A stretch of 64,000 nt of DNA from Thermodesulfobacteriota bacterium (GTDB lineage Bacteria > Desulfobacterota_D > UBA1144 > Nemesobacterales > Mycalebacteriaceae): positions 1,319,423 to 1,383,422 of the forward strand of contig OZ245366.1 in NCBI GenBank assembly GCA_965226585.1, in the 5' to 3' direction. Under the pieces are notes generated by a model. That model searched no databases and had not been told where the DNA came from. It was given only the letters and a program-made list of their open reading frames with translations. A program made the position numbers and the translations under genes. Positions 13,884 to 49,879 of this stretch are shown piece after piece. How positions within the stretch are numbered: position 1 is the stretch's first letter; the number at the start of each line of letters is the position of its first letter.

Positions 13884-14174
13884 ATGGACAAAAATCCCGC
13901 AGTCTACATAATGGCGAGCAAGCGAAACGGAACACTTTACACAGGTGTAACCAGCAACCTGCCCGCCCGCGCTTGGGAGCATAAGAACAGCGCGACAGAA
14001 GGTTTTACAGACAAATACAGTGTCCACCTGCTTGTGTACTTTGAAGTGCACGAGGATATGAATTCAGCAATTGAACGCGAGAAGCAGATAAAGCAATGGA
14101 AACGCCAATGGAAATTGGAACTTATAGAGAAAGACAACCCTGAATGGAAAGATTTGTATGAGGATATTGTTTGA
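13884..14174 (+). CDS. GIY-YIG nuclease superfamily protein, 96 aa, of the UPF0213/YhbQ-like small stand-alone GIY-YIG type.
   Basis: The N-terminus reads AVYIMASKRNGTLYTGVTSNLPARAWEHK..., matching the GIY-(10-11)-YTG...R...EH pattern of the GIY-YIG catalytic domain. It is the only plus-strand gene in the island. It is inserted in the loop of a repeat-unit palindrome. Confidence 0.75.
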   Translation: MDKNPAVYIMASKRNGTLYTGVTSNLPARAWEHKNSATEGFTDKYSVHLLVYFEVHEDMNSAIEREKQIKQWKRQWKLELIEKDNPEWKDLYEDIV

Positions 14175-14920
14175 GTAGGGGTTTCGCCAGTTGAATACTG
14201 GATTCCGTGTCAGGCACGGAATGACGGGAAGGGGAAAAGGCACGGAATGACACACTTTCCCGTCATTCCTGCGGAAGCAGGAATCCAGTATTGGTTAACC
14301 AGTTGAATACTGGATTCCGTGTCAGGCACGGAATGACGGGATGGGGAAAAAGGCACGGAATGACGGGAGTGGAGAAGCGTCATTCCGTTGCCTCCTCCGT
14401 CATTCCTGCGGAAGCAGGAATCCAGTATTGGTTAGCCAGCTGAATACTGGATTCCGTGTCAGGCACGGAATGACGGGAAGGGGAAAAGGCACGGAATGAC
14501 ACTCTTTCCCGTCATTCCTGCGGAAGCAGGAATCCAGTATTAGTTAGCCAGTTGAATACTGGATTCCGTGTCAGGCACGGAATGACGGGAAGGGGAAGAA
14601 GGCACGGAATGACACTCTTTCCCGTCATTCCTGCGAAAGCAGGAATCCAGTATTAGTTAACCAGTTGAATACTGGATTCCGTGTCAGGCACGGAATGACG
14701 GGAAGGAGAAAAGGCACGGAATGACACACTTCCCCGTCATTCCTGCGGAAGCAGGAATCCAGTATTGGTTAGCCAGTTGAATACTGGATTCCGTGTCAGG
14801 CACGGAATGACGGAAAGGGGAAAAAGGCACGGAATGACGGAAAAAAAACAATCAACGGAATGACGGAATGGTGGAAAGCACGGAATGACGGGAAGGGGAA
14901 AAGGCACGGAATTACAGGTC
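14175..14920. repeat. Tandem array 2 of the ~113-bp palindromic repeat, ~6 units plus a degenerate A-rich tail.
   Basis: ccag(t/c)tgaatactgg recurs at ~14190, 14302, 14440, 14551, 14662 and 14774. The array sits directly downstream of the paralog C stop codon. Confidence 0.9.
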
Positions 14921-21360: not shown

Positions 21361-24300
21361 TTAGAACCTGTAATTAACTCCGCCCCTGAACTGTTGAATA
21401 AAAGTATCCACCGAAGAACTAAACCCGCCGCCATACTCAACACTCACATTAAACTTCTCGTAAGGGCTGTATTCTAAACCCGCCCCGTAGGTGAACATCA
21501 CCCTGTCCATTGTGCCGTCCACGGGAACATTATCCCTCTCAAGCCTTCCCTCAATCTCCGACTCAGGGTTAAGCACCTGTATATCCGCCCCTGTTTTTAT
21601 CCACATGTTTATCGTCTCATTGAGAGGAGTCCGCGCCTCTATTGACGGACTCACATACACAAGAAACTCACTTATCTCATCTACCCCAAAAGCGTCCATC
21701 GCCGCGTCTGCGTCCAAAGTGTTGTCTGCGTTTCTCGCAAGCGAAGTCTCATTAAACTTATCCGCCGTTATTTGCGATGCTCCAACCGCCACACGGGGGA
21801 AGAGAGCAAACTCTCCCATTAAAAACGGCCTTGACGCGCCTATCTCACCGCCAAATACCGTTGCGTCCACATCCGCCCGGTAACTGTTGCCCGCCGTTCT
21901 TGTCGCTTCCCAACTCGTTGACCCGTAACGCAGGTTGCCGTCAAGAACAAACTCATCAACCAACGCCTCGGCAAATATGCCGCCCATGAACCTTGTTGCG
22001 TCTCCGCTTGCTTTGCCCAGTCCTCTTGTGTCCGCCGCAGTCTCTGTTTCCGAACTCGCGTCTATGTTTGATACCTCATATCCGCCCGCGATGGAAACAA
22101 GCACTCCGCTGAACGGGGCTGATACTCCGCCGGTGAAGGAATAAACATCCTCGTCATACTCTATCGCCGATGTGTGCCTTGTGTATCTTCCGCCCGATGT
22201 TGCCCATACACATCCGCCAGTCCAAAACTCTCCGGAAATCTCATCACTCGCCGCTCCGCTGATTCCGCATCCTCGCGCCAACTTGTCGGCAAAGTTTCTG
22301 TCTGAACGATAGGCGGACTGTATCAGCGCGTCATATACATCCAAACTTGTGTCTTTGTGCGATGTTGCTCTTAAAAGCAGGTTGCCGTTTTCGTCTGTCT
22401 CAACACTTACCCTTTCGCCGGTTTCCGCGCTCAGGCGGTCTGCAAACTCTTGCATTTCCTCGCCTTCGGGCAGGTCATCCGCTTCAAAAATTGTGTACTC
22501 CGTTACATGCGCGCCGGGAACTTCAACTTCAACATTGAAACCCTCAACATCAGAGGCGGTTATCGTCCCCTCAAGGTTTATCAGCGGGTCGCCCGCCACG
22601 CTTTCAGGGTCTGCCGTGATAACAAGAGTCGCGCCTTCGCCGAACTTTATACTCTCAAGCCCGGTAAATCCGTCCGCGCCCTCAATCACTGTTGTGCCGT
22701 TGCTTATGAAGCGGTCATTACCGCCTTCGCCAAAGTCTATGCTCGCTTGAGTGTCCGCAGGAGCGGGGTCTATTGCAGAAAGACTGAAACGCGCCCCGCC
22801 GCCTGATGCCGGTGAAGATTGCGCCCCGGATGAAAGACGGAAACGTCCGGTTCCGCCGGCAGACGGAGTGGTTTCCGCATTCTCTAACATGAAAGAACCC
22901 ACAGTAAGCGTTGAACCCGTTTCAGTCGTAACGGTGTCTCCATCGCCCGCGCCGAGGTCAAGATTGCCCGTAAGCGTAAATGTGGAACCGCTCTTAATGG
23001 TAATCTCGTCATCACCGCCTCCGGTGTCTCCCGAACCCGTGAAATCTCCCTCGTTGTCGAAGGTATCCGCGCCATCGGCAAGTTCTATTCTGCCGGTTAT
23101 GTTGCCGTCTGCGTGGGTTGTTATAGTTATCCCCGCAGTGCTTTCGGAATCAATTGAAAAGTGAACCGCGTTCACAGCCGCCGTCTCCGTGCAGGCTGTG
23201 CCTGAAAGCACACCGCCGCAAACTATCGCGCCATTTCCAACTTGAAGTTGCTGACCAAGCGTTGCCGCGACTATCTTTACCGTGTTTCCGCCCGAACTGT
23301 TTGACCACACTCTCGCGTCTTCAAGGTTAATACCCGAAAGCCATGTGTAGATGGCTGAAGATGAAAGCCCCTCAGCCCATACTTCCGCCTTTACTCCAGC
23401 CGGTGCGGAGAGCTCAACTGTCGTTGGGGTGCCCAGATCTTCCGGCGGGAATGTAATACGCTGTCCCCTGTCGGAAGAGTTATGGGAAGAGCGAGGGACA
23501 GAGGAAGAGGAAGCTGCGGCAACCCTTCTTATGCTTATGGTGGCGGTGTCTGCGCCGTTTGACCATATCTGCGCTCCGGTTTCAAGCGAAACCAGTCCGC
23601 TTACCGTCTCTATCCTGACAGCGCCGGACTCAGTCCCTTCAGACCAAACCTGTTTCGGGTCAAAGTAAGTGCCCACTGCCGCCGGGTTGGTTGAAGAATG
23701 CGTGAAGTCAAAGGCAACCGCGTTGTCTCCGGTTGTCCAAACCTTGTTTATCTCTGTTATCCCTATGTTGGATTTGCCTGAAATCGTAAAGTCTCTAATT
23801 TTTACTGTCGCGCTTGATGTTTCAACACTTGCTGAGAACAGAGGTCCGGTTACGGAATCTCCCGACCTGAACGATGAGTTGGTTGATGTAACGGTTATGT
23901 CGTCATCTGAACCTGCTATTTTGAGTATCTCGCCGTCTTGAGAGTTGATGCCGACCACCGAGTTGTGAACCGTAAGTCCCACGGCGGAGCCCGCGCTCGC
24001 CGTCAAATCAAACACCACAGAGTTTTCGCCCTCCACCCAAACTTCCGCTCCGTCGTCTATGTTGATGGCAATGGGACCCCCTGCCGAGTCTGCTTCAAAC
24101 ACAGTGGAATTGGCTCCGTTTGTCCATGCCTGTGATGCGTTAAACCACGTAACGGTTGACACTTTTACCGCCGAAGAGTTGATTCCGGTTGTCCAAACCT
24201 GTCCGCCGCCGGAAGCATTCAAAATTGCTGAAACTATCGCGTTGCTTGACGCTCCGCCGCTCCACACTTTCGCGCCATTGACTGTTACGGCGGTTGTTGC

Positions 24301-27300
24301 CGTAACCGCATTGCTTGTGTCGCCGTTAGCCCAAACATTCGCGCCGTTCCAAATGTTCACAGTCGGAGCAACGATGGTGTCGGTTGCGCCGCCTTCCGTC
24401 CAGACCTGAGTGTCCGTGCTGTTGACTGTTGCGGCTGTTGTCGCCGAAACCGCCTGACTTCCCGCGCCGTTTGCCCACACTTTTACGCCGTCATTGATAT
24501 ATGCCGTTGTTCCTTTTACTGTCGGAACGCCGTCAACTGTTGTCCAAACCTCTCCCGTTGCGTCATCCGCCACTACGTTGACCGTTCCCGAAGCTCCCGC
24601 AGAAACCGCAGAACTGCCCGTGCCTTCCGCCCAAACCTTTCCTTCGTTTGAAACATTCAAAGTTGCCGTAACTATAGAACTGCTTGTCGCCCCGTTGCTC
24701 CACACTTTCGCGCCATTGACTGTTACGGAGGTTGTTGCCGTAACTGTGTTGCTTGTTACGCCGTTTGACCAAACATCTGCGCCGTTCCAAATGCTGACAG
24801 TTGGCGCAACTATGGTGTCGGTTGTGTTGCCTTCCGTCCAGACCTGAGTGCCCGTACTGTTGACTGTTGCTGTTGTTCTCGCCGAAACCGCCTGACTTCC
24901 CGCGCCGTTTGCCCACACTTTCACACCGTCATTGATAAATGCCGATGATGCGTCTTTTACTGTTGAAACGCCGTCAACTGTTGTCCAAACCTGTCCGTCT
25001 CCGTCTGCTGATACGATGTTGGCATTTATTCTGCTTCTCGCCGCAACCGCCGAACTTGTCGCGCCTTCCGCCCAAACCTTTCCACCGCCGGAAATATTCA
25101 AAGTTGCGGCAACTATCGTGTTGCTTGTCGCGCCGTTGCTCCACACATTCGCGTTATTGACTGTTACGGTGGTTGTTGCCCTAACCGCGTTACTTGTTAC
25201 GCCGTTTGACCACACATTCGCGCCGTTCCAAATATTGGTACGCGAAGCCGATACGGCGTCGCTTGTGTCGCCTTCCGCCCAGACCTGAGTGCCTGTGCCG
25301 TTGACTGTTGCTGCTACAGACGGTAGTGCTGACGTCGTTACCGACGCAACCGCCGCACTGCCCGCGCCGTTTGCCCACACTTTCACGCCGTCATTAATAA
25401 ATACCTCTGCTCCTTCTACTGTGTGAACTCCGCCAACCGTTGTCCAAACCTGTCCCGTTGCGTCATCCGCCACTATGTTGACCGTTCCCGAAGTTCCCGC
25501 AGCAACCGCCCCGCTTTCCGTGCCTACCGCCCAAACCTTTCCTTCATTTGAAACATTCAAAGTTGCCGTAACTACCGTGTTGCTTGATGCTCCGTTGCTC
25601 CAAACCTGCGCGTCATTAACTGTTACGGTTGTTGCCGCAACCGCTCTGCTTGTTACGCCGTTTGCCCAAACATCTGCTTTGTTCCAGATATTGACGGTTG
25701 TCGCAAGGATGGTGTCGGCTGTGCCGCCTTCGCTTGTCCAGACTTGGGTGCCCATGCCGTTGACTGTTGCCGTTGTCGCCGCAACCGCCTGACTTCCCGC
25801 TCCGTTTGCCCAAACTTTTACGCCGTCATTGATATGTGCCGTTGTCGCTTTTACTGTCGGAACGCCGCCAACCGTTGTCCAAACCTGTCCCGTTGCGTCA
25901 TCCGCCACTATGTTGACCGTCCCTGAAGTTCCCGCAGAAACCGCAGAACTTGTCGTGCCTTCCGCCCAAACCTTTCCTTCATTTGAAACATTCAAAGTTT
26001 CCGTAACTATAGAGTTGCTTGTCGCCCCGTTGCTCCACACTTTCGCGTTATTAACTGTTACAGAAGTTGTTGCCGTAACCGCATTGCTTGTTACGCCGTT
26101 TGCCCATACATCTGCGCCGTTCCAAATGCTGACAGTTGGAGCAACGATGGTGTCGGTTGTGTTGCCTTCCGTCCAGACCTGAGTGTCTGTACTGTTGACT
26201 GTTGCCGTTGTCGCCGCAACCGCCTGACTTTCCGCTCCGTTTGCCCATACTTTTACGCCGTCATTGATATATGCCGTTGTCGCTTTTACTGTTGAAACGC
26301 CGCCAACCGTTGTCCAAACCTGTCCCGTTGCGTCATCCGCCACTATGTTGACCGTCCCTGAAGTTCCCGCAGAAACCGCAGAACTTGTCGCGCCTTCCGC
26401 CCAAACCTTTCCTTCATTTGAAACATTCAAAGTTTCCGTAACTATAGAGTTGCTTGTCGCTCCGTTGCTCCACACTTTCGCGCCATTGACTGTTACGGTT
26501 GTTGCCGTAACTGTGTTGCTTGTTACGCCGTTTGCCCAAACATCTGCTTCGTTCCAAATGTTCACAGTTGTCGCAACTATGGTGTCGGCTGTGCCGCCTT
26601 CGCTTGTCCAGACCTGAGTGCCCGTGCCGTTGACTGTTGCCGTTGTCGCCGAAGCCGCCTGACTTCCCGCTCCATTTGCCCACACTTTCACGCCGTCATT
26701 GATATATGCCGTTGTCGCTTTTACTGTCGGAACGCCGCCAACCGTTGTCCAAACCTGTCCCGTTGCGTCATCCGCCACTATGTTGACCGTTCCCGAAGCT
26801 CCCGCAGAAACCGCAGAACTTGTCGCGCCTTCCGCCCAAACCTTTCCTTCGTTTGAAACATTCAAAGTTGCCGTAACTACCGTGTTGCTTGTCGCTCCGT
26901 TGCTCCACACTTTCGCGCCATTGACTGTTACGGAGGTTGTTGCCGTAACTGCGTTGCTTGTTACGCCGTTTGCCCAAACATCTGCGCCGTTCCAAATGTT
27001 CACAGTTGGCGCAACGATGGTGTCGGTTGTGTTGCCTTCCGTCCAGACCTGAGTGTCCGTACTGTTGACTGTTGCCGTTGTTCTCGCCGCAACCGCCTGA
27101 CTTCCCGCTCCGTTTGCCCACACTTTCACGCCGTCATTGATATATGCTAATGATGCTCCTCCTACTGTTGAAACACCGTTAACTGTTGTCCAAACCTGTC
27201 CGTCTCCGTCTGCTGATACGATGTTGGCCGTTATGCTACCTCTCGCATAAACCGCAGAACTGCCCGTGCCTTCCGCCCAAACCTTTCCACCGCCGGAAAT

Positions 27301-29568
27301 ATTCAAAGTTGTCGTAATTACCGTGTTGCTTGTCGCCCCGTTGCTCCACACATTCGCGTCATTAACTGTTACGGTGGCTGTTGCCCTAACCGCATTGCTT
27401 GTGTCGCCGTTAGCCCAAACATTCGCGCCGTTCCAAATGTTGACGGTTGACGCCCCGGAGATGGTGACGGTTGTGTCGCCTTCCGTCCAGACCTGAGTGC
27501 CTGCGCCGTTGACTGTTGCTGTTGTTACCTCAACCGCCCGAGTTCTCGCCCCGTTTGCCCAAACTTTCACACCGTCATTGATATACGCCGTTGTCGCTAC
27601 TACTGTCGGAAAGCCGCCAACCGCCCAAACCTCTCCCGTTGCGTCATCCGCCACTATGTTGACCGTTCCCGAACTTCCCGCAGAAACCGCCGCACTGCCC
27701 GTGCCGTTTGCCCAAACCTTTCCCTGGTTTGAAACATTCAAAGTTTCTGTAACTACCGTGTTGCTTGTCGCTCCGCTGCTCCACACTTTCGCGCCATTGA
27801 CTGTTACGGTTGTTGCCTTAACCGCATTGCTTGTCGCGCCGTTTGACCAAACATTCGCTTCGTTCCAAATGTTCACAGTTGTCGCAACTATGGTGTCGGC
27901 TGTGCCGCCTTCGCTTGTCCAGACTTGGGTGCCCATGCCGTTGACTGTTGCTGTTGTCGCCGAAACCGCCTGACTTCCCGCTCCGTTTGCCCAAACTTTT
28001 ACGCCGTCATTGATATATGCCGTTGTCGCTTTTACTGTTGAAGCGCCGCCAACCGTTGTCCAAACCTCTCCCGTTGCGTCATCCGCCACTATGTTGACCG
28101 TTCCTGAATCTCCCGCAGAAACCGCAGAACTTCCCGCGCCGTTTGCCCAAACCTTTCCACCGTTTGAAACATTCAAAGTTTCCGTAACTATAGAGTTGCT
28201 TGTGTCGCCTTCCGTCCACACTTCAGAGCCGTTGACCACAACAGTTGTTGCTGAAATGGCGTTGGCTGTCGCTCCGGTAGCCCGCACTTTTGAGGCGTTC
28301 CACACATTCACCGCGCCAGTTGTTGAGATTGTGGTGGCTTCCGTTTTGTTCGTCCATACATCCGCGCCGCTGACATCAACATCACCGGTCGCCAAAATCG
28401 CGAAATCCGAACCATTGCCGCCGACATCTGCGCCCACAATATTCACCGTTGACGCATTAATTGCCGCAAATCCGCCTTCCGTCCAGACGGAAAGACCGTC
28501 CGCTTCTCCCGCCACTACTGACAGGGTTCCCGTGGTTGAAGCTTCAATGGCAATACTTCCGGCTCCATCCGCAAAGATAACTGAACCGCCGTTTCCGCCT
28601 ATGTTTATGTCTCCGCCGCTTGTGGATGTTGCTATAATGCCGTTCCCGCCTGTGAGGGTTGAGCCTTTTCCGCCTCTTCCATAGACGACTCCGTTCGTGA
28701 GAGCGAGGTCAATGTTTCCGCTAACCGTGTTGGCTATGATGCCGTCTTTACCAAGTATGCAGGCGGTGTCGTTCATAAGTACCATGCTTATGGATCCCGT
28801 GCCTGCGGTGGATGCCGCCAAGCCGTAAGACTCTCCCACGGATGAGGCGATTATTGCCGCGCTGTCTATAAGTTCAACTGTTATGTCTCCGCTTGCGGAT
28901 GTGAGTGTCGCGCCTCTGGTGTCTTCAACTGTGTCTTCCTTGCCTGTGCCGCTTCTGGCTCCATACAGGTGGATTGCCGAATATATCCCGCTAAATGAAA
29001 GTTCAATATCTCCGCCTACTGTGTTTGCTATAAGACCGTTTGTGCCTTGTTTGTCTGAAACGATTATTCCCTGATTGGAGAAGTCCGCGACCACTTTTCC
29101 GCCTGTGGATGTTGCTATAATGCCGTTTCCGCCGGTTCCCCCGATTTTAACTTCTGTGACGTTGTGAATGTCTATATCCACATTGCCCGTTCCGGCTGTG
29201 ATGGTAACAACGTTTCCATCGCTTCCGCCTTTGGTGGTGGACGACTTATCATCGGTTCGGAAGGTAGCGTCAATCGCGCCGCCGATAACTACTGTGTCTC
29301 CACCTGTTTGGGTTGTTGTGATAGTTGAGTTGTAAGAGGTAAGGGTGGCAGACCCTGTGGTGGAGTTGACTGTAACAACGGGGTTGTCCGTAACAGAGTC
29401 AGGCACCCCGCCTGAGATGTTAAGCGCGGCGTCTCCTGTTGTGGAGGTACAATCAAACGCGGTTGCGGTTGTTGGGGTTACATCGCCGCAATCTGTTTGT
29501 GCATAAGCGGGCGGCGCAAAAGCAAATAGAACTGCGAACATAGAGATGATGGTTAATTTTCTGTGCAT
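21361..29568 (-). CDS. Giant autotransporter-like surface protein, paralog D, 2735 aa, with at least 8 tandem 145-aa super-repeats.
   Basis: Signal peptide MHRKLTIISMFAVLFAFAPPAYAQ. There is a 435-bp periodicity across ~24400–28000; the motif cgccgtcattgatatatgccgttgtcgcttttactgt recurs at 26256 and 26691. The barrel ends VNYRF. Confidence 0.9.
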   Translation of the reverse strand: MHRKLTIISMFAVLFAFAPPAYAQTDCGDVTPTTATAFDCTSTTGDAALNISGGVPDSVTDNPVVTVNSTTGSATLTSYNSTITTTQTGGDTVVIGGAIDATFRTDDKSSTTKGGSDGNVVTITAGTGNVDIDIHNVTEVKIGGTGGNGIIATSTGGKVVADFSNQGIIVSDKQGTNGLIANTVGGDIELSFSGIYSAIHLYGARSGTGKEDTVEDTRGATLTSASGDITVELIDSAAIIASSVGESYGLAASTAGTGSISMVLMNDTACILGKDGIIANTVSGNIDLALTNGVVYGRGGKGSTLTGGNGIIATSTSGGDINIGGNGGSVIFADGAGSIAIEASTTGTLSVVAGEADGLSVWTEGGFAAINASTVNIVGADVGGNGSDFAILATGDVDVSGADVWTNKTEATTISTTGAVNVWNASKVRATGATANAISATTVVVNGSEVWTEGDTSNSIVTETLNVSNGGKVWANGAGSSAVSAGDSGTVNIVADDATGEVWTTVGGASTVKATTAYINDGVKVWANGAGSQAVSATTATVNGMGTQVWTSEGGTADTIVATTVNIWNEANVWSNGATSNAVKATTVTVNGAKVWSSGATSNTVVTETLNVSNQGKVWANGTGSAAVSAGSSGTVNIVADDATGEVWAVGGFPTVVATTAYINDGVKVWANGARTRAVEVTTATVNGAGTQVWTEGDTTVTISGASTVNIWNGANVWANGDTSNAVRATATVTVNDANVWSNGATSNTVITTTLNISGGGKVWAEGTGSSAVYARGSITANIVSADGDGQVWTTVNGVSTVGGASLAYINDGVKVWANGAGSQAVAARTTATVNSTDTQVWTEGNTTDTIVAPTVNIWNGADVWANGVTSNAVTATTSVTVNGAKVWSNGATSNTVVTATLNVSNEGKVWAEGATSSAVSAGASGTVNIVADDATGQVWTTVGGVPTVKATTAYINDGVKVWANGAGSQAASATTATVNGTGTQVWTSEGGTADTIVATTVNIWNEADVWANGVTSNTVTATTVTVNGAKVWSNGATSNSIVTETLNVSNEGKVWAEGATSSAVSAGTSGTVNIVADDATGQVWTTVGGVSTVKATTAYINDGVKVWANGAESQAVAATTATVNSTDTQVWTEGNTTDTIVAPTVSIWNGADVWANGVTSNAVTATTSVTVNNAKVWSNGATSNSIVTETLNVSNEGKVWAEGTTSSAVSAGTSGTVNIVADDATGQVWTTVGGVPTVKATTAHINDGVKVWANGAGSQAVAATTATVNGMGTQVWTSEGGTADTILATTVNIWNKADVWANGVTSRAVAATTVTVNDAQVWSNGASSNTVVTATLNVSNEGKVWAVGTESGAVAAGTSGTVNIVADDATGQVWTTVGGVHTVEGAEVFINDGVKVWANGAGSAAVASVTTSALPSVAATVNGTGTQVWAEGDTSDAVSASRTNIWNGANVWSNGVTSNAVRATTTVTVNNANVWSNGATSNTIVAATLNISGGGKVWAEGATSSAVAARSRINANIVSADGDGQVWTTVDGVSTVKDASSAFINDGVKVWANGAGSQAVSARTTATVNSTGTQVWTEGNTTDTIVAPTVSIWNGADVWSNGVTSNTVTATTSVTVNGAKVWSNGATSSSIVTATLNVSNEGKVWAEGTGSSAVSAGASGTVNVVADDATGEVWTTVDGVPTVKGTTAYINDGVKVWANGAGSQAVSATTAATVNSTDTQVWTEGGATDTIVAPTVNIWNGANVWANGDTSNAVTATTAVTVNGAKVWSGGASSNAIVSAILNASGGGQVWTTGINSSAVKVSTVTWFNASQAWTNGANSTVFEADSAGGPIAINIDDGAEVWVEGENSVVFDLTASAGSAVGLTVHNSVVGINSQDGEILKIAGSDDDITVTSTNSSFRSGDSVTGPLFSASVETSSATVKIRDFTISGKSNIGITEINKVWTTGDNAVAFDFTHSSTNPAAVGTYFDPKQVWSEGTESGAVRIETVSGLVSLETGAQIWSNGADTATISIRRVAAASSSSVPRSSHNSSDRGQRITFPPEDLGTPTTVELSAPAGVKAEVWAEGLSSSAIYTWLSGINLEDARVWSNSSGGNTVKIVAATLGQQLQVGNGAIVCGGVLSGTACTETAAVNAVHFSIDSESTAGITITTHADGNITGRIELADGADTFDNEGDFTGSGDTGGGDDEITIKSGSTFTLTGNLDLGAGDGDTVTTETGSTLTVGSFMLENAETTPSAGGTGRFRLSSGAQSSPASGGGARFSLSAIDPAPADTQASIDFGEGGNDRFISNGTTVIEGADGFTGLESIKFGEGATLVITADPESVAGDPLINLEGTITASDVEGFNVEVEVPGAHVTEYTIFEADDLPEGEEMQEFADRLSAETGERVSVETDENGNLLLRATSHKDTSLDVYDALIQSAYRSDRNFADKLARGCGISGAASDEISGEFWTGGCVWATSGGRYTRHTSAIEYDEDVYSFTGGVSAPFSGVLVSIAGGYEVSNIDASSETETAADTRGLGKASGDATRFMGGIFAEALVDEFVLDGNLRYGSTSWEATRTAGNSYRADVDATVFGGEIGASRPFLMGEFALFPRVAVGASQITADKFNETSLARNADNTLDADAAMDAFGVDEISEFLVYVSPSIEARTPLNETINMWIKTGADIQVLNPESEIEGRLERDNVPVDGTMDRVMFTYGAGLEYSPYEKFNVSVEYGGGFSSSVDTFIQQFRGGVNYRF
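24400..28000. repeat. Intragenic tandem repeat in paralog D with a 435-bp unit (145 aa = ~7 VWxNG mini-repeats), at least 8 near-identical copies.
   Basis: The shadow ORFs at 24494, 24932, 25829, 26264 and 26699 are near-identical and spaced at multiples of ~435 bp. Direct sequence recurrence confirms the period. Confidence 0.8.
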
Positions 29569-29614
29569 AAGGGTTCCCCTCGGAGGGTTAAATTGGATTG
29601 ACTAATCTTCGGAA

Positions 29615-29643
29615 AAGATATAGTTCAACGGAAGTTGTGTCAA
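29615..29643 (-). promoter_or_regulatory. Putative σ70-type promoter for paralog D: -35 TTGACA at 29638-29643, a 17-nt spacer, and -10 TATCTT at 29615-29620 on the minus strand, followed by a GAGGGG Shine-Dalgarno before the ATG.
   Basis: The minus strand reads ...ctcTTGACAcaacttccgttgaactaTATCTTttcc. The whole ~120-bp leader is conserved upstream of paralog G at 49765-49900. Confidence 0.45.
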
Positions 29644-29689
29644 GAGTTGAAAAGGGAGACAGGAAAAAAATTTTTCATTCCTGCGGAGG

Positions 29690-30700
29690 CAGGAATCCGG
29701 CATTGGTTTAGCCGGTTGAATACCAGTTGAATACTGGATTCCGTGTCAGGCACGGAATGACGGGAGGGGGAAAAAGGCACGGAATGGCACACTTTCCCGT
29801 CATTCCTGCGGAAGCAGGAATCCAGTATTGGTTAGCCAGCTGAATACTGGATTCCGTGTCAGGCACGGAATGACGGGATGGGGAAAAAGGCACGGAATGG
29901 CACACTTTCCCGTCATTCCTGCGAAAGCAGGAATCCAGTATTGGTTTAGCCATGTTGAATACTGGATTCCGTGTCAGGCACGGAATGACGGAAAGGAAAA
30001 AAGGCGCGGAATGACACACTTTCCCGTCATTCCTGCGAAAGCAGGAATCCAGTATTGGTTAGCCAGTTGAATACTGGATTCCGTGTCAAGCACGGAATGA
30101 CGGGATGGGGAAAAAGGCACGGAATGGCACACTTTCCCGTCATTCCTGCGGAAGCAGGAATCCAGTATTGGTTTAGCCCAGTTGAATACTGGATTCCGTG
30201 TCAGGCACGGAATGACGGGATGGGGAAAAAGGCACGGAATGACACACTTTCCCGTCATTCCTGCGGAAGCAGGAATCCAGTATTGGTTAGCCAACTGAAT
30301 ACTGGATTCCGTGTCAGGCACGGAATGACGGGAGGGGAAAAAGGCACGGAATGACACACTTTCCCGTCATTCCTGCGGAAGCAGGAATCCAGTATTGGTT
30401 AGCCAGCTGAATACTGGATTCCGTGTCAGGCACGGAATGACGGGATGGGGAAAAAGGCACGGAATGGCACTTCCCCGTCATTCCTGCGGAAGCAGGAATC
30501 CAGTATTGGTTAACCAGTTGAATACTGGATTCCGTGTCAGGCACGGAATGACGGGATGGGGAAAAAGGCACGGAATGGCACACTTTCCCGTCATTCCTGC
30601 GGAAGCAGGAATCCAGTATTGGTTAACCAGTTGAATACTGGATTCCGTGTCAAGCACGGAATGACGGAAAGGAAAAAAAGGCACGGAATGACGGGATGGG
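29690..30700. repeat. Tandem array 3 of the ~113-bp palindromic repeat, ~9 units, lying between the E stop and the D promoter.
   Basis: ccag(t/c)tgaatactgg recurs every ~113 bp at 29730, 29838, 29953, 30065, 30180, 30293, 30406, 30519 and 30632. The loop varies between ggttaacc, ggttagcc and ggtttagcc. Confidence 0.9.
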
Positions 30701-33700
30701 TCAAAAACTGTAATTAACCCCGCCTCTGAACTCTTGCACAAAAGTATCAAAACTCGCGCTCATTCCGCCATCGTAATCAATCCTTACACTCAATTCCCGC
30801 AGAGGAGCATAAGGCGTGTATTCAAAACCCGCGCCGTAGTTGAACATTATCCGGTCCTGCCCGCCGCTTCGGGGAACATTACCGTCAGCAAGAGTCGCCT
30901 CAAGTTCCGCCTCAGGGTTCAAGATGTGTATGTCCGCACCTGCGCGAATTCTCATATTTACCGTCTCACTCAAAGGCGAACGCGCCTCAAATGACGGACT
31001 TACATATACCAGTATCTCGCTTGTGTCTTTTACTTTGAAAGCGTCAGCTATTGCCTCAGGAGTGTTTGTTAAGGAAGTCTCATCAAACGCCCCCGCTGTT
31101 ACATAAGACGCTCCAATCTCTATACGGGGAAACAACGCAAAAGTGCCGGACAAAAACGGCATTGCCGCGCCAAGCGCGCCGCCGAATACTGTTGCGTTTG
31201 TGTCCGCAGTGTAACGGTTATCTCCCGCAGTGCGGGTTGATTCCCAACTCGTAGAAACATACTGAAACCTGCCGTCAACCATGTATCTGTCCACTATTGT
31301 GGAAGCGAAAATGCCGCCCATAAATCTTGTTGCCTCTCCGCTTGCGTCTGCTCTGCCTTCATCAGTCATCACATCCATATCAAGGTTTGATATTTCATAA
31401 CCGCCAGCCACCGAAACAAGAATGCTGTTAAACGGCGCGGAAACGCCGCCGGTGAAGGTATAGACATCTTCGTCATAGTTAATCGCTGAAGAATAACGTG
31501 TGTACCTTCCGCCCGATGTTGCCCACACGCAACCAGTCCAGAAATCTCCGTCTATTTCATCACTTGCCGCAGAGCCGTAACCGCAACCGCTTGAAAGTTT
31601 TGTGGCAAAACTCCTGTCTGCGCGGTAAGCGGATTGTATGAGAGAATCATAAATATCTAAACTGGCATCTTTCAGCGACATTGCCGTCAGGAAAAGGTTG
31701 CCGTCTCCATCAGTCTGAACACTTCCCCTTTCGCCTATTCCCGCATTCAGACGCTCTACAACTTCCTGCCTTTCTTCGCCTTCGGGCAGGTCGTCCGCTT
31801 CAAAAATTGTGTATTCCGTTATATGCGCTCCGGGAACATCAACTTCAACATTGAAACCTTTTACATCTTCCGCAGTTATCTCGCCTTCAATATCTATGAG
31901 CGGTTTGCCTGTCATCTCTTCGGGGTCTGCCAAGACAACAAGGGTTGAATTTTCTCCAAAGGTTATTTTTTCCAGTCCCGCAAATCCGCCTGTGTCTTGA
32001 ATTACGATTGTGCCTTCGTTTATGAAATGGTCATCGCCATCGCCAAAGTTAATGGTTGCCCGTTCCGGCTCCCGCTCAGGCGCGGCGGCGGATAGGCGGA
32101 AGCGGCTGTCGCCGCTTGCTGACCCCTCCCCCGTCATTCCTGCCTCCCCCGTCATTCCTGCGGAAGCAGGAATCCAGTATTGGTTAGCCAGTTGAATACT
32201 GGATTCCGTGTCAGGCACGGAATGACGGGAGGGCGCGGAATGACGGGAAGGGGAGGATGCGGAATGACGGGAAGGCGCGGACGAATGACGGGCGGGCGTA
32301 GAAAGCCCCTCAACTTCGTCATCGTCACCGTATATGACCATACCCGCGCCGTTTATTATGCCGGAGTTCTCGACAATATCATCGCCGTCTCCCGTGTCAA
32401 AATCGCCGGTAAGCGTCATAACTCCCGTTTCTTCGTTGTAGAGTTCGTCATTGCCATCGCCCATGGTGCCGCTTCCGGTGAATATGCCTCTGTTCTCGAA
32501 AAAGTCATCGCCGTCTCCCATGTCAAAAGAGCCGCCGGTAGTTGTGATAACTCCCGATTCTTTGTTGCTAACAATATCGTGAGAATCGCTCAGTTGAATA
32601 TTTCCGACTATCGTTCCCATATTGTTCAGAGTAGCGTGTAAGTCCTTCCTACCTAAACTGCTCCCGTCATCGTCTAAACGCAAGGCATCCACCCTGTTCG
32701 CGGCTGTAACCACACACTCGTTACGAAATTCCACGCCGCCGCACAAAAGACCGCCCTCATAAATTTCCACAACAGTTCCCTGATAAGACGAACTGCCGCT
32801 TCTCAAATATGCCGCCACAGAGTTCATCCCGGAGGCATACACACTCGCGCTTCTGTGGATGTAGAGTGTTGCATTGCCCGTGCCGCTGGAAGATTCTCCC
32901 TTGGAAAGCAGGATGGTTGTGCTGTCCGCTCCGGTTGTGTACACACGCGATTCGGCTATGTTCGCAACAGAAGCTCTCTTGGGCGCGTTAATATTCACCG
33001 CCACACTGTTCACACCATTTGTGAACACACCAGACGAACTGCTAATAGAAACAGTTGAGTTCGCGCTTTCCGCGCTCCCTTCCCCTATCCATATCGCGTG
33101 GCTGTCATTTGCCGCCGTGTACACCCGCGCCCCGGCGGATACTTGTATGTAGGAATCCCCGGTAGTGCTGTTAAAAGATATGGCGTTGCTTTCCGCCCCG
33201 TTCGCAAACACTCTGGAAAAATCGTGAACCGTTATATGTCCAACCGCCTCCGTATCTACGATTATGGCACTGCCCGCTTTTGTGGTGAACACGGTTGATG
33301 ACTGGTTGACTATTATTTGCGTTTTATCGTTGTTTATTCTGTCGTCAAGGTAGCTCAAATAAGGACGCTCTTCCAGACCGTTTGCGTAGATTGCCGCGCT
33401 TCCCGCGCCGTTTGCCCACACATGAGACTGATTACCGACAGTTATAAGTTGGTCTCTGCTACTAACATTGCCGTAGATTGTGCGCGACCCGTCTCCCTGC
33501 GACCACACGTTTGAGCCGTTGATTTCAATTCCCACAAACCGGTGGGAATCCCCCCACAGCGCGCGTCCGTCTTGCCCCGTTGCCCAAACCCTTGAGCCGT
33601 TGGCAATCACAATATAAGAATCGGTTGTTAATGATGATGTTGTCTTTGTCCTTATGCCGTATCCGTCTCTGCCCGTAGTTTTGATGTTTGAACCGCTGAC

Positions 33701-34600
33701 AACAACATTGCCTCCTCCCGCTCCCAGCATATTCATAAAGACTGCCGATGAACGTGTAGGCGAGGTAGTTCGTGTGGAATTTTCAAAGATGTCTGAATCG
33801 CTAATTTCCACATAGGTTCTGCCAGCCCCCGTTGTCCGCGTCCTGATGGTGTTTGAGTCCCGGCTTGAACTTCGTTCGCCAGTCCACATTTTTGACGAGC
33901 TGACCTTCAAGGTAATCGCGTTGGCTCCGGCGTCTGAGTTTGACGAGAAGGCAAAAATTGCCGAACTGTCGGACTTTCCCGCCCATATTGTTGAGCCGTT
34001 TATGCTGACCGCAACACTGCCGCCTCCGGCATTGGCAACAACCGCGTTTGAGTCCGCCCCGTCCGCCCATATATGCGAGCCGTTTATTTCAATGTCTATA
34101 TTCTCGCTGTCGCCCGCGCTGCTGAAATGAGCGATGTTCGCATATCTGGGTACTATGCGCGCGCCTATTTGCGAGTTGTGAATGGCAACAGACATTGCCG
34201 CAGGGGTCGCCGTTTCCGCCCACACCGCGCCCGCTCTCTGTCCGCCGTTTGCCCACACATTCAGGTTGCGGAGTTCAAGCGCGGGGCTGTCTGTCCTGAT
34301 AGTGTTGACACTGCCGCCAACAGACCATATTTCCATCGTCTCGCCTTCCGCCGCGAGGATTGAGAGTTTGTCGGCGCCTTCAGACCATATTGCCGAACTG
34401 CTCGCCCCGCTTGCCCATATTTTTGAGGGACCCCGCACGATGAAAGAAACATTGCCGCCCGTGCTTTCCAAGCCAATCGTTATGCTTTGCGCGTAAGAGT
34501 CGCCCGGCGCGGGGAGGGCGAAAAGAAGAGCCAACAGAATAATGGCGATTGATTTTTTAGGCATTTTTTCAGTTGGCGCACAATGTTTTTTGTCCGTCAT
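30701..34600 (-). CDS. Autotransporter-like outer-membrane protein, paralog E, 1299 aa, with an in-frame insertion derived from the intergenic repeat.
   Basis: Signal peptide ...KKSIAIILLALLFALPAPGDSYAQ. The barrel ends ...EFRGGVNYSF. Bases 32120-32300 are a copy of the intergenic repeat, translated in frame as ...SRHSVPDTESSIQLANQYWIPASAGMTGE.... Confidence 0.85.
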   Translation of the reverse strand: MTDKKHCAPTEKMPKKSIAIILLALLFALPAPGDSYAQSITIGLESTGGNVSFIVRGPSKIWASGASSSAIWSEGADKLSILAAEGETMEIWSVGGSVNTIRTDSPALELRNLNVWANGGQRAGAVWAETATPAAMSVAIHNSQIGARIVPRYANIAHFSSAGDSENIDIEINGSHIWADGADSNAVVANAGGGSVAVSINGSTIWAGKSDSSAIFAFSSNSDAGANAITLKVSSSKMWTGERSSSRDSNTIRTRTTGAGRTYVEISDSDIFENSTRTTSPTRSSAVFMNMLGAGGGNVVVSGSNIKTTGRDGYGIRTKTTSSLTTDSYIVIANGSRVWATGQDGRALWGDSHRFVGIEINGSNVWSQGDGSRTIYGNVSSRDQLITVGNQSHVWANGAGSAAIYANGLEERPYLSYLDDRINNDKTQIIVNQSSTVFTTKAGSAIIVDTEAVGHITVHDFSRVFANGAESNAISFNSTTGDSYIQVSAGARVYTAANDSHAIWIGEGSAESANSTVSISSSSGVFTNGVNSVAVNINAPKRASVANIAESRVYTTGADSTTILLSKGESSSGTGNATLYIHRSASVYASGMNSVAAYLRSGSSSYQGTVVEIYEGGLLCGGVEFRNECVVTAANRVDALRLDDDGSSLGRKDLHATLNNMGTIVGNIQLSDSHDIVSNKESGVITTTGGSFDMGDGDDFFENRGIFTGSGTMGDGNDELYNEETGVMTLTGDFDTGDGDDIVENSGIINGAGMVIYGDDDEVEGLSTPARHSSAPSRHSASSPSRHSAPSRHSVPDTESSIQLANQYWIPASAGMTGEAGMTGEGSASGDSRFRLSAAAPEREPERATINFGDGDDHFINEGTIVIQDTGGFAGLEKITFGENSTLVVLADPEEMTGKPLIDIEGEITAEDVKGFNVEVDVPGAHITEYTIFEADDLPEGEERQEVVERLNAGIGERGSVQTDGDGNLFLTAMSLKDASLDIYDSLIQSAYRADRSFATKLSSGCGYGSAASDEIDGDFWTGCVWATSGGRYTRYSSAINYDEDVYTFTGGVSAPFNSILVSVAGGYEISNLDMDVMTDEGRADASGEATRFMGGIFASTIVDRYMVDGRFQYVSTSWESTRTAGDNRYTADTNATVFGGALGAAMPFLSGTFALFPRIEIGASYVTAGAFDETSLTNTPEAIADAFKVKDTSEILVYVSPSFEARSPLSETVNMRIRAGADIHILNPEAELEATLADGNVPRSGGQDRIMFNYGAGFEYTPYAPLRELSVRIDYDGGMSASFDTFVQEFRGGVNYSF
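32120..32300. mobile_element. Intergenic-type palindromic repeat element inserted in frame inside paralog E, in the passenger/β-domain linker. It behaves like a Rickettsia RPE or a MITE.
   Basis: The coding sequence contains ccccgtcattcctgcggaagcaggaatccagtattggttagccagttgaatactggattccgtgtcaggcacggaatgacggg. The equivalent site in paralog A (window ~860-960) has no insertion. Confidence 0.8.
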
Positions 34601-34662
34601 TCCAATACTGGATTCCTGCTTCCGCAGGAATGACGGGAAAAGGCAATGGAATGACAGGGCAC

Positions 34663-37600
34663 CTAAAACGCCAATCCAAATCTTGCGCTGAACCTTTGTG
34701 TCAATGTATCAAGCCCCGCGCCAACACCTCCGCCATACTCAACCCGCAAACTGACACCGCTTCCGGGCGTAACCTCAAGCCCCGCGCCGTATTTAACCAT
34801 CACCCGCTCAAAATTGCCGTCAGCAAAAACAGGGTCGGGGTCTGCGGGGGTGCTTTCGGGGGAACCGCCGCTCCACTTTGTTTCAGGGTCTGTAATGTGC
34901 GCTTCCGCTCCCAAACTCATCCAAATATTTACCGAATCCCCCGCCGGAGCATACGCCTTTACGGACGGGCTTATGACTAAATATGTCTCCCCCGCCTTGT
35001 CAACCGAAATGGCGGAATCTCCCGCGCTTTTCTCACCGAAACTGTCAGCAGACACCCGTGTAACCGCCGCTTCAACTCTGGGGACAACCATAAACACGCC
35101 GCCGGGAACAATCGGCATTTCCGCCCCCACAGCCGCAGACCATGTTGATATGTCGGTTTTCGCGTTGTAGAAAGCGGACGACCTTACCGCAGTTGACTCC
35201 CATACCGCTTTGGCAAACTGCGTTCTCGCGTCCGTAATAATTCCGTCCCAAATCTCACCCGCCACCGCGATACCCGCCATAAACCGCTCGGCAACGGCGT
35301 TTGTGTCCGCCCCGATTTCAAAATCCGATGTCTCATATCCCGCCGCTATTGAAATGGCGGACTTTCCGGAGGGTATTGTGAAACCGCCTGAAAATACATA
35401 AGCGTCTTCGCCGTATTTGGCGTTGTCTGCGTTTTGGCGTGTGTATCTGCCGTCTGTGTCCGCCCACACACAGCCGCCGCTCAAGTCCTGAGTTTCCGCC
35501 CCGCCGCCGCCGTAGCAACCGCCGCGCAGTTTTTCAGAGAAGGCATTGTCCGCATAATAGGCGGATTGCAGTATCGCGTCATAGTTTCGCAGGTAATCCA
35601 TGTGTTCCCGTGTTACAAGGGTGATGAATATATTGCCGTCCGCAGACATCCGGGCGTTTTCGCCTTCGCCGAGCCCTTCTCTTATCATGCCGAGAATGGC
35701 TTGCCTTTCCGCTTCGCCATCGGGAATGGCGTTTTCGCTGAACATGGCGAATTCGGCGGAATGTCTTGCGGGGTTGTCAAACTCTATGCTTATGCCTTTT
35801 ATGTCTTCCGCCGTTATCTCGCCTTCAAGGTTGATGAGGGGTTTGTCGTTCATTTCCCCGGGGCTTGCGGAGACAACAAGGGTTGAGTTTTCGCCGAAAG
35901 TTATTGTGTCCAGTCCGTTAAAGCCGCCCGCGCTTGTGATGGTTATTGTGCCGTTGTTTATAAAGTGGTCTGTGCCGGAGCCGAAGTCTATACCCGTGGT
36001 TGGCGCGGGTGGAGGCGAGGCGGAAAGGCGGAAACGGCTGTCGCCGCTTGCTGACGGGGTAATACTGGATTCCGTGTCAGGCACGGAATGACGGGAGGGG
36101 GAGGATGCGGATGCGATACGCATGGAGCCGCCGCCGTCTCCCTCTGTTGATACCGTGCCTCCAAGTATTTGCGAGCTGTCATAGGTTACGCTCGCGCCGT
36201 CTTTGTTGACGAAAGTGTCATCACCGGCTCCCATGTCAAAATCTCCGGTGAGGGTGAAGGTTCCTTTGTTTTCAACTCTGTCATCGCCGCCGCCGGTTGT
36301 GCCGCTTCCGGTGAATGTGCCGTTGTTGTAGAAAACATCGCGGGTTTCTGAAAGCGAAATTTTCCCCACGATACTGCCGCCGGTGGATCTGGTTGTTATC
36401 TTTGTGCTGGCGGTCGCCCCGTCTGCCGTCTCAAAACGCACGGCGTACACATCCGCGCCGCCCTCGGTGCAGGTTGCTCCCGCAAATACGCCGCCGCACA
36501 CGGTCGCGTCTCTGGCAACGGTTAGAGCCATTGAGCCGTTGATGTTTTTGAAAGACACCGCCGAACTGTTTGAGCCGTTCACCCACGCCTTTGAGCCGGC
36601 CGAGGCTAACTCAAAATCCACATATCCGTCCACATCCGCTTTCACCGCCGTGCTGTTCGCCTCCTCAGCCCAGAAAGTTGATACGCCGTTTGATATAAAG
36701 ATTATGTTTGTCCCCTCAATCGCGGAAAACGCCGCGCTGTTCACGCCCTTTGTGAAAATCTCAGAAACAGCCGGGACCCCGTCCGCTTGAGTGAGGGAAA
36801 TCAGAGTCGTGCTGTTCACGCCGCCAGTTACAAGCGGAACCTCATCTGTTTGGGAGTAGGAAATCAGAATCGCGCTGTTCACGCCGTTAATCCCAATCGC
36901 CGTGCTGTCCGCCCCTTCCGTCCACACCTTCGCGCCACTTACAGCCGCCGTCAGTGTCAACCCCGAAACCGAAATCGCCGTGCTGTTCGCGCCGTTCGTG
37001 AAAACGGACGAACCCATATACATAGCCCCTTCACCGCCGATGGACATACGCACCGCCGTGCTGTTTGCCCCTTCCGTGTAAATGCTTGAGTTTTGACTGA
37101 GAGTCGCGCTTACAAAACTGCCGAATTCCGAAGATGAGACCGAAACTGCCGTGCTGTCCGCGCCGTTTGTGAAAACCGTTCCGCCGTACCAAATGTCCAC
37201 TCTTGCCGTTCCGCTATCCGTTTCCGCCAGAATCGCCGCCCCGTTATCCCCGTCTGTCCACACAGTCGCGTAGTCCGGGAAAAACCGCCAAAAAAGCCCC
37301 TGCCCGTCTATGGGGAAGTTTATTACAACTTGCGCGTTTCCTTCACCAGACCGCGCCTTTGCCGCCGAACTGTCCGCGCCGTTTGCCCATACTTCGGCGG
37401 TAACGGTGTAACCGAGAATATTGATGAACGCGTTTTCGTCCCCCGCCACATCAATAGTCGCGGTGTTATCGCCTTCCGACCACACTGTTGCGAATGTGCT
37501 GACAATCGCATTGGCATCTCCCGCGTCCGCCCTTGCGTGGATAACGGGGGAGTTGGGCGCGTTTGTCCACACCTGCCCCACAGAACCGCTGAGCGTTATG

Positions 37601-49764: not shown

Positions 49765-49807
49765 TAAGGGTTCCCTAGAGGGGTAACTGGGTTAACTAAT
49801 CTTGGAG

Positions 49808-49836
49808 AATGTATAGTTGAACGGGGGTTGTGTCAA
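49808..49836 (-). promoter_or_regulatory. Putative σ70-type promoter for paralog G: -35 TTGACA at 49831-49836, a 17-nt spacer, and -10 TACATT at 49808-49813, with a G8 homopolymer at 49846-49853 just upstream.
   Basis: This is a homolog of the D leader. The minus strand reads cTTGACAcaacccccgttcaactaTACATTctcc. D carries gggagaca where G has the G8 tract. Confidence 0.4.
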
Positions 49837-49879
49837 GAATTAAAAGGGGGGGGCAGGAAAAAATTTTCACTCCTGCGGA

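Follow-up and report, generated by a model that had tools for sequence, protein, structure and literature searches.

The 64,000-nucleotide stretch analyzed here (referred to below as the window) lies on contig OZ245366.1 of a Thermodesulfobacteriota bacterium (assembly GCA_965226585.1). The window has 53.5% G+C and contains eight large paralogous open reading frames (ORFs A-H, all on the minus strand) for predicted autotransporters, between which a hairpin repeat is organized in three intergenic arrays. The same repeat is found inside three of the ORFs (E, F, and H), in frame and at one homologous site in the linker between the passenger and the translocator module. Its hairpins show the architecture of those repetitive extragenic palindromic (REP) elements whose end bears a CGTC tag. 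The segment inside the ORFs is probably a copy of the locus's own CGTC REP repeat, which was inserted into an existing linker and copied locally.

The array unit of ∼113 nt consists of a left (L) hairpin, a spacer, a right (R) hairpin, and a second spacer. Each unit comprises an 83-nt quasi-palindrome (TCCCGTCATTCCTGCGGAAGCAGGAATCCAGTATTGGTTAACCAGTTGAATACTGGATTCCGTGTCAGGCACGGAATGACGGG), followed by a ∼30-nt spacer that echoes part of the right end. The L hairpin reads CGTC-ATTCCTGC-GRAA-GCAGGAAT-CCA (loop GGAA or GAAA), and the R hairpin, on the opposite strand, reads CGTC-ATTCCGTG-CCTGA-CACGGAAT-CCA. Both finish with …GGAAT-CCAGTATT, and their tails point toward each other over a spacer with complementary ends. 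The window contains 27 L and 29 R hairpins, 25 as dimers, and all 25 full dimers (including the copies in E and H) exhibit (C)CGTC-ATTCC… on one strand and likewise on the other strand for R. In the array copies, 0-4 positions of the 83-nt core deviate from the consensus, and any two copies differ on average by 3.1 positions. A search of Rfam with the repeat returned no family at gathering score, and hits with E < 1 were only spurious miRNA hairpins.

The terminal motif GGAATGACGGG (≤1 mismatch) occurs 75 times in the window, compared with 1.8 expected occurrences, which excludes chance as the origin of the repeat inside the ORFs. Apart from two single-mismatch matches, all occurrences fall into the arrays, one of the three linker sites, the spacer between E and F, or a position just past the B stop. 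Within ∼46 kb of paralog coding sequence, it is found only at the one homologous linker site.

A first-pass annotation of the window had proposed that the array repeat sits inside E and H, and the alignments bear this out. The 83-nt dimer core shows 2 differences from the array consensus in E (32147-32229) and 3 in H (51894-51976), within the range of the array copies. The reading frame is kept, as had also been claimed together with a gain of ∼50 residues: the ORFs of 1299 and 1805 amino acids run uninterrupted through 58 repeat-derived codons in E and 53 in H. Both inserts consist of one dimer, a duplicated 18-nt left head (AGMTGE twice), and repeats of the right head (xPSRHS), of which E possesses four and H three; the lengths of all surplus head repeats are divisible by 3. 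F had been described as carrying the right half of the element. Its piece indeed matches the consensus right hairpin at 35 of 35 nt and reads CGTC-ATTCCGTG…, but this "half" constitutes a complete single REP. Paralog A lacks a copy, as had been stated, but it does not represent E minus the insert, because it features its own Ser/Pro-rich linker of 28-30 residues at the insert site (…PPSSSPPPSSQSAPAHGAQSTPSEGGGN-RFRLS).

Of the six frames across the core, just one per strand is open, and the genes use the open frame of their own strand; an additional tandem 113-nt unit would move reading into a closed frame. The repeats flanking the core measure 18-24 nt in the ORFs versus 26 nt at the array ends, and where the spacer has A/T runs, the in-ORF flanks have G/C instead. 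The insert has a G+C content of 62%, compared with 51-52% in the arrays and the gene. A structure model places it upstream of the autotransporter barrel, in a linker predicted to be disordered. Tryptic digestion would release the predicted insert peptide HSVPDTESSIQLANQYWIPASAGMTGEAGMTGEGSASGDSR from both E and H, and from F a peptide spanning HSVPDTESSITPSASGDSR. When 5.8 billion proteins were searched with the insert peptide, no candidate emerged. Repeat-induced misassembly could conceivably have placed array sequence into the ORFs, given how extremely repetitive the locus is. We consider this highly improbable, because the copies stand in three separate contexts with unique flanks on both sides, the insert lengths are divisible by three and their frames are open, the number of head repeats differs between E and H, and the GC-rich flank variants inside the ORFs are absent from the arrays.

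The presence, half-presence, and absence of the element at one site, to which the first-pass annotation had pointed, hold in that three states exist at the same codon, but the copies in E and H count as one event. Upstream of the insert, E is 60-80% identical to A and ∼45% identical to H. The identity between E and H amounts to 70% in the block containing the 5' edge of the insert, then rises to 95-98%, and remains at 65-100% (mostly 90-100%) on to the stop codon, the high tract starting at the outermost REP head. The matching blocks pair 30140-32506 with 49867-52251 (87.9%) and 27064-30243 with 47254-50441 (80.4%). Thus, the series of D 5' part, array 2, E translocator, and repeat duplicates that of G 5' part, array 3, H translocator, and repeat over ∼5.4 kb. 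The 18-nt head duplication is idiosyncratic and common to E and H. These alignments show that the E and H copies can be traced to a single event, spread by a segmental duplication of ∼5.4 kb or by gene conversion.

Just three homologues of the paralogs were found in the collection of 5.8 billion proteins. P0001 is translocator-only, 93% identical to E, and comes from a Thermodesulfobacteriota metagenome-assembled genome (MAG), and P0003 is a close homologue from a related MAG. The C-terminal region of F shares 67% identity with the third homologue, P0002, and 63% with P0003. In P0003, the site is unoccupied (codons …GCG TCT TCC|ACC CCG TCA GCA AGC GGC GAC AGC CGT TTC…, encoding TSASS|TPSASGDSRF), and F corresponds to the reading of P0003 plus exactly 39 nt (CCCTCCCGTCATTCCGTGCCTGACACGGAATCCAGTATT) placed between TCC and ACC CCG TCA. 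A and D retain ACC/ACT CCG TCT at the insert position; as TPS or a close variant stands there in both, the insert site is ancestral. In H, the native GCG CAA TCA (compare GCG CAG TCA in A) passes straight into the repeat, and native sequence is reached again from TCA GCA AGC, so that 53 repeat-derived codons stand in place of the native "TP". Because the site is empty in P0003, the in-ORF segment is an insertion into an older linker and not itself ancestral. The earlier proposal of an active or recently active mobile repeat thus stands as far as insertion at an empty site is concerned, but its activity is drawn solely from the near-identity to the array copies. A protein profile scanned against metagenomes matched 179 times by pattern, but no match was confirmed, and scanning with the element's centre gave none; no more orthologues were gained.

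An ancestral segment, reduced by simple deletions and without repeat-like termini, had been named as the finding that would speak against insertion; instead, P0003 exhibits an empty site, and the copies have repeat termini. In its fuller form, this alternative holds that the segment is an ancestral linker that was lost in A, C, D, G, and partly F, and that the arrays derived from it or resemble it by chance. The 5' junction motif that E, F, and H have in common would agree with it, as would SASGHSTAPGGI of P0002, which stands before TPSASGDS and is vaguely similar. Yet the segment is missing from P0003 and P0002, and the flanks of F are contiguous in P0003. In addition, the copies are 97-100% identical to array units, whereas their flanks are 72-80% identical to the homologues, and the same hairpin occurs in many phyla without these genes. 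An ancestral origin is therefore extremely unlikely.

Aligning the linkers, which had been suggested as a check, defined the boundaries of the inserts and gave no clear target-site duplication. The entry point is the native ACC-CCG-TCA of the Ser/Pro-rich linker (…SASS|TPSASGDSRFRLS…) between passenger and translocator module, and the native ACCCCGTCA resembles the repeat's own end, CCCGTCA. The F insert is flanked by a 7-nt direct repeat of CCCGTCA, which cannot be called a target-site duplication, because it belongs to the element's own head and microhomology fits equally well. At the 5' junction, E, F, and H have the motif GCA TCC TCC CCY TCC CGT CAT TC in common, and judged from this motif, the F insertion may not be independent of that in E/H. 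The 3' junction of E/H reads …GACGGGGGAGGG|GTCAGCAAGC; its end is element-derived, because an intergenic copy in a related MAG has the same ending and the same duplicated head.

This copy was found in the related MAG GCA_051010995.1 (L095). There, a REP dimer between genes (9815-9925), whose left head is duplicated in the same way and which is in reverse orientation to the gene, precedes a translocator-only gene (10001-11317) of 438 amino acids with ∼90% nucleotide identity to E, H, and A; a partial REP and the start of an A-like gene come after it. Capture of the repeat by fusing a passenger to such a "repeat plus β-only" cassette was considered and rejected, because homologues have the two insert flanks joined without a gap; the opposite orientation of the L095 repeat relative to its gene also contradicts it. 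In P0002, the linker (SASGHSTAPGGITPSASGDS; residues ∼455-480, …SASGHSTAPGGITPSASGDSRFRLS) exhibits "GHS" and Ile directly before TPSAS, like F (…SRHSVPDTESSITPSAS…). It could represent a decayed single-REP insertion in a ninth paralog.

Array 1 houses a small gene for a GIY-YIG nuclease, which accompanies the repeat and which the first-pass annotation had not mentioned. The gene is part of an insert of 313 nt (13874-14186), by which one REP dimer of the array is split at its centre. From the end of the L hairpin (13843-13873) to the ATG there are 10 nt, and the R hairpin (14187-14228) starts 13 nt past the stop. The gene lies 18 kb from the copy in E. The spacing of Tyr-8, Tyr-19, and Glu-66 in its product equals that of the mutated residues Tyr-6, Tyr-17, and Glu-64 of SsnA from Neisseria meningitidis. 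The protein has ∼8000 homologues below 1e-10, the best of which are 70-80% identical (Phycisphaerae, Gammaproteobacteria, Nitrospira, and others), whereas no relative was found in the PDB. P0004, encoded on the same contig as P0002, is 100% identical to the 96-residue protein. In Nitrospira, genes for ∼76% identical homologues (L107 and L108) have gCGTC-ATTCCTGC-gaaa-GCAGGAAT-CCAG on their upstream side and its inverted copy downstream, and in gammaproteobacterial loci the GIY-YIG gene stands amid ACTCCGGC hairpins of the 4-nt and 5-nt loop types.

The hairpin itself is also widespread. The 31-mer GTCATTCCTGCGRAAGCAGGAATCCAGTATT is present base for base in at least 94 contigs (L001-L094) from many phyla, including Planctomycetota, Nitrospirota, Thermodesulfobacteriota, Poribacteria, Dehalococcoidia, Armatimonadota, WOR-3, Nitrospinota, Bacteroidota, Achromatium, and others. 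A lineage-specific second hairpin of the dRS3 type usually comes after it, and the 31-mer often lies inside longer lineage-specific inverted repeats. When the GIY-YIG protein was compared by tblastn with the 94 listed hairpin loci in other phyla, a single, non-adjacent match was obtained.

With a nuclease gene at hand, the inserts might be attributed to a REPIN-like transposition, in which an Ssn-type nuclease or another enzyme acting in trans would excise or copy single-stranded REP units and insert them beside a CCCGTCA-like target. The one REP in F and the dimer in the ancestor of E and H would then be independent site-specific insertions. The gene is situated within a REP dimer like RAYT genes between GTAG REPs, and the same hypothesis has been raised for the Ssn proteins (PMC11893778). 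Both types of insert are located at the same codon beside head-like native sequence, lone REPs also occur in intergenic DNA, and the exact 31-mer together with ∼75%-identical nuclease genes across many phyla suggests a travelling pair. However, strand transfer by Ssn is not known, GIY-YIG enzymes being hydrolytic nucleases, and a regular target duplication is absent. Moreover, among the 94 listed hairpin copies from other phyla there is none deep within a long ORF, and three intragenic copies at one homologous site can be accounted for by descent and gene conversion without any site specificity. We regard transposition of this kind as unlikely.

In the local copying that we favor, the source would be the neighboring arrays, which lie 1.4 kb off and have the same orientation; copying would have occurred at the head-like site, induced by a break or guided by microhomology. 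The breaks probably arose through hairpin extrusion and cutting of single strands by Ssn, and cut-and-paste with target-site duplication appears less likely. The copy would then persist as neutral sequence in a flexible linker.

Several observations weigh against insertion by local copying. Codon alignment yielded no unambiguous target-site duplication at the F, E, or H copies; E and H are devoid of the CCCGTCA direct repeat, and their native ACCCC is replaced. The 3' junctions differ between F and E/H, so that a single ancestral insertion needs an additional step, whereas two events need site specificity. The comparison outside the window comprises one related MAG, and the insert peptide is known from the ORFs, that is, as a conceptual translation. 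Concerning the enzyme, its putative kinship to N. meningitidis SsnA (cd10448) rests on size and residue spacing, and the published role of Ssn is to restrict transforming single-stranded DNA (PMC11893778). Finally, neither the published NTS string nor the SRM pattern HGTCWYN(0-2)YYVSBRHN(0-5)WNVSBRGN(0-2)RNCYNB of the Ssn systems has a match on either strand of the window when no mismatches are allowed. The published NTS search allows 1 mismatch, which the L hairpin with its 2 mismatches fails as well; both strings serve for searching and do not define the repeats.

The in-ORF repeat might also have a selected function, either as a site cut by Ssn, so that passenger and translocator become independent modules of recombination, or as a very stable mRNA hairpin that causes ribosome pausing or processing at the domain boundary. 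The high identity between E and H begins at the outermost head. Both translocator cassettes are bracketed by repeats, that of E (30701-32104) because array 2 abuts the E stop and that of H (50451-51851) because array 3 ends directly before the H stop. In Neisseria, genes for surface proteins have NTS clustered near them, and single-stranded DNA undergoing recombination is shortened by SsnA at NTS. The positions that are critical according to PMC11893778, namely GTC ahead of the stem and C behind it, are all kept in all intergenic copies and in 3 of 3 in-ORF copies. The E insert folds into a predicted mRNA hairpin of -70 kcal/mol (z = -9.2), stronger than that of the intergenic unit (-47 kcal/mol); the corresponding value for H is -57.5 kcal/mol. 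The hairpin of E (32130-32245, minus strand) is longer than the intergenic unit, because the amplified heads on either side of the dimer pair together. However, the single REP of F folds weakly (-9.9 kcal/mol, z = -1.75), paralog A shows the same identity boundary without a repeat, so that the boundary may be a mere domain border, and youth or conversion can account for the near-identity of the copies. A selected function thus appears rather improbable. It is likewise doubtful that the repeats in the genes are working Ssn sites and provide a programmed breakpoint for domain shuffling among the surface-protein paralogs. If they did, the nuclease would cut incoming or replicative single-stranded DNA at the passenger/translocator junction and at the arrays past the stop, and the ∼1.4-kb translocator cassette and the passenger would be separately exchangeable, at the cost of a harmless disordered peptide. 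Because repeats bracket the translocator cassettes and a nuclease gene adjoins, the locus is suited for testing repeats as recombination boundaries.

Features of the window discussed in the text (positions are those of the 64,000-nt window)
Feature	Positions	Strand	Remarks
In-ORF segment of E, repeat-derived, in frame	32123-32296	-	174 nt, 58 codons, PARHSSAPSRHSASSPSRHSAPSRHSVPDTESSIQLANQYWIPASAGMTGEAGMTGEG
In-ORF segment of H, repeat-derived, in frame	51870-52028	-	159 nt, 53 codons
Single CGTC REP of F	36061-36099	-	39 nt, 13 codons, PSRHSVPDTESSI; between native TCC and ACC CCG TCA
Homologous linker of A without REP	871-960	-	native head-like ACC CCG TCT present
Array 1	13198-14912	.	between B start and C stop; ends ∼2 nt from C stop; houses GIY-YIG gene
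Array 2	29655-30700	.	abuts E stop codon
Array 3	49832-50445	.	last REP head ends at 50444; repeat-derived up to 50450, directly before H stop
Solitary L-type REP, inverted	34602-34647	.	in 62-nt spacer from F stop to annotated E start
Solitary R-type REP, inverted	9263-9300	.	overlaps and directly follows B stop; A-run after it
GIY-YIG nuclease gene, single-domain, Ssn-like	13884-14174	+	96 amino acids; PF01541 at 7.8e-16
Paralog A	1 to ∼9150	-	truncated at window start
Paralog B	9298-13122	-	ORF
Paralog C	14921-21334	-	ORF
Paralog D	21361-29568	-	ORF
Paralog E	30701-34600	-	uninterrupted ORF, 1299 amino acids; stop codon 30701-30703
Translocator module of E	30701-32104	-	linker, autochaperone-like domain, α-helix, 12-strand barrel (model)
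Paralog F	34663-40407	-	intact ORF
Paralog G	40420-49764	-	ORF
Paralog H	50451-55868	-	uninterrupted ORF, 1805 amino acids; stop codon 50451-50453

The paralogs are, according to structure prediction, type Va autotransporters, in which a passenger is followed by a pore helix and a C-terminal barrel of 12 strands. All seven paralogs with a complete C terminus in the window (B-H) possess a signal peptide and a C-terminal Phe; for paralog A, a signal peptide was found, and the C terminus is lost to the window start. Pfam and NCBIfam gave no match to the paralogs, even at E = 10 for the C-terminal part, and a sequence search of the PDB gave no useful one. The homologue P0002 matches Pfam PF03797 at 5.6e-14, whereas E itself does not match it. 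An AlphaFold (AF2) model of the last 599 residues of E comprises β-helix strands, a disordered stretch (residues 59-146, predicted local distance difference test score ∼25), a small domain, a long helix (residues 279-303), and a 12-strand barrel (strands within residues 324-598). Its best structural matches in the PDB are EstA and NalP (TM score 0.80-0.84 on target), EspP, AIDA-I, Hbp, and BrkA.

In its translocator module, E is 90-100% identical to the corresponding regions of H and A, the translocators of these three paralogs being homogenized; those of C and D are ∼69% identical to them. The passengers consist of long tandem repeats of ∼435-441 nt (∼145 amino acids; nine copies in D), which are located at 5400-7800, 19100-20400, 24100-28400, 38000-39200, and 44600-48500 and built of shorter sub-repeats of ∼141 nt common to A, C, D, F, and G. 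They match no Pfam family. Paralog B lacks the SRFRLS linker motif that the other paralogs carry. The annotated ATG of E (34598-34600) falls in a REP head (GGAATGACGG) that belongs to the solitary REP between F and E, and the true start of E is probably the second Met (MPKKSIAIILLALLFALPAPG…, with a signal peptide). A role of the solitary REPs as terminators was rejected, because the A-run or T-run stands on the wrong side and the REP at the B stop is non-canonical in either direction. Beyond the paralogs, the window contains housekeeping genes (fmt, aspS, hisIE, and genes for a hydantoinase and a NUDIX protein).

Among known systems, the repeat resembles most closely the CGTC-tagged REPs (Di Nocera, De Gregorio & Rocco 2013, PMC3733652). 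These are defined by an unpaired terminal CGTC (or TGTC/CCTC), a stem of 8-9 bp that begins with A-T, a loop, which has 4 nt in family 1 and 5 nt in families 2-4, and a short unpaired tail, in most cases CCA. They occur in many copies per genome, for the most part intergenic, and form inverted heterodimers with complementary spacer ends near the 3' ends of ORFs (PMC3733652). The hairpins of the window exhibit an unpaired terminal CGTC, an 8-bp stem starting with AT, a loop of 4 or 5 nt, and a CCA tail. They are likewise organized in inverted heterodimers, and they are placed right after stop codons, with arrays abutting the C, E, and H stops and solitary units after those of B and F; in these respects, they are like CGTC-1 and CGTC-2. 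Intragenic CGTC REPs occur singly, as dimers, or grouped and encode up to 43-82 residues, with published peptides such as WIPAFTGMT, WMPAFAGMT, MPASAGMT, VIPAKAGI, and CHSRESGNP (PMC3733652, supplementary table). The predicted YWIPASAGMT… and SRHS… of the inserts lie in the same frames as these peptides. The locus differs in three respects. The five phyla of the survey exclude this lineage, with its Thermodesulfobacteriota-like genome. Clusters are reported to be rare except in Neisseria and Wolbachia, whereas regular tandem dimers of ∼113 nt form arrays of up to 1.7 kb here. The survey reports no associated enzyme, whereas a nuclease gene is nested in an array here.

Rickettsia palindromic elements (RPEs) are connected to this superfamily, as CGTC-1 corresponds to Neisseria dRS3 and R. 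conorii RPE-6, and CGTC-4 to RPE-4 (PMC3733652). The first-pass annotation had likened the tolerance of the repeat inside proteins to that of RPEs, and the comparison holds well, since the hairpins belong by architecture to the superfamily that includes RPE-4 and RPE-6. The sequence relation to RPEs rests, by description only, on the equivalence of CGTC-1 and RPE-6 and on similar predicted peptides. As in Rickettsia, palindromic repeats stand in frame inside intact genes at fold-compatible places, and homologues without the insert exist. In contrast, RPE-1 has ∼150 bp and another sequence and is spread across many unrelated housekeeping genes, whereas the inserts described here occupy one homologous linker site in a paralog family beside large intergenic arrays, in a host that is probably free-living and not obligate intracellular.

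The Ssn proteins (cd10448) are site-specific nucleases for single-stranded DNA, and NTS/SRM hairpins stand on both sides of their genes (Chenal et al. 2025, PMC11893778). In Neisseria and other bacteria, such repeats are the sites at which the enzymes bind and cut single strands. NTS (CGTCATTCCCGCGMAVGCGGGAATCYRG) include dRS3, gather around membrane-protein genes, and rarely lie inside genes (2% in N. meningitidis); incoming single-stranded DNA is cut near NTS by SsnA and therefore integrates less (PMC11893778). The window exhibits a similar layout, with a small GIY-YIG gene between hairpin repeats on both sides and arrays near surface-protein genes, and the hairpin, which reads CGTCATTCCTGCGAAAGCAGGAATCCAG, is almost identical to NTS. 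Compared with NTS, the L hairpin with a GAAA loop differs at 2 positions, which make up one compensatory stem pair (C:G to T:A), and the R hairpin differs in stem and loop. The in-frame copies at a domain junction of three paralogs further distinguish the locus from the NTS system. The dRS3 definition is ATTCCCN8GGGAAT (PMC1797815), whereas the hairpins of the window read ATTCCT-N8-AGGAAT and ATTCCG-N9-CGGAAT; the partner hairpins in other phyla do match dRS3. Like the NIME arrays of Neisseria (PMC1797815), the three hairpin/spacer arrays lie between tandem paralogs of surface proteins, here autotransporters. Because the window contains >50 hairpins of this architecture and no match to the published SRM/NTS pattern, surveys with that pattern undercount such repeats. 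With this locus, the range of Ssn/NTS-type repeat systems comes to include an environmental lineage that branches deeply.

The layout NTS-ssnA-NTS has been likened to RAYT/REP systems (PMC11893778), and the window shares with REPIN-RAYT systems and BIMEs the inverted REP doublets that form long hairpins, an enzyme gene flanked by REPs, and a putative single-stranded hairpin substrate. It differs from them in the tag (CGTC versus GTAG) and in the enzyme, which is a GIY-YIG hydrolase instead of an IS200/IS605-like HUH tyrosine transposase. Miniature inverted-repeat transposable elements, bounded by terminal inverted repeats and mobilized by a transposase, are characterized by a target-site duplication at each copy, which the copies in F, E, and H do not exhibit.

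In-frame palindromic repeats (RPEs; PMC10969869), intragenic CGTC REPs, and hairpins flanking ssn genes are already known. New are the lineage, a hairpin variant outside the published pattern, regular 113-nt arrays between autotransporter paralogs, and in-frame copies exactly at the passenger/translocator junction that bracket an exchangeable translocator cassette. With an empty site, a single unit, and a dimer with additional heads at the same codon, the locus provides a clean, datable case of a hairpin repeat becoming protein sequence.

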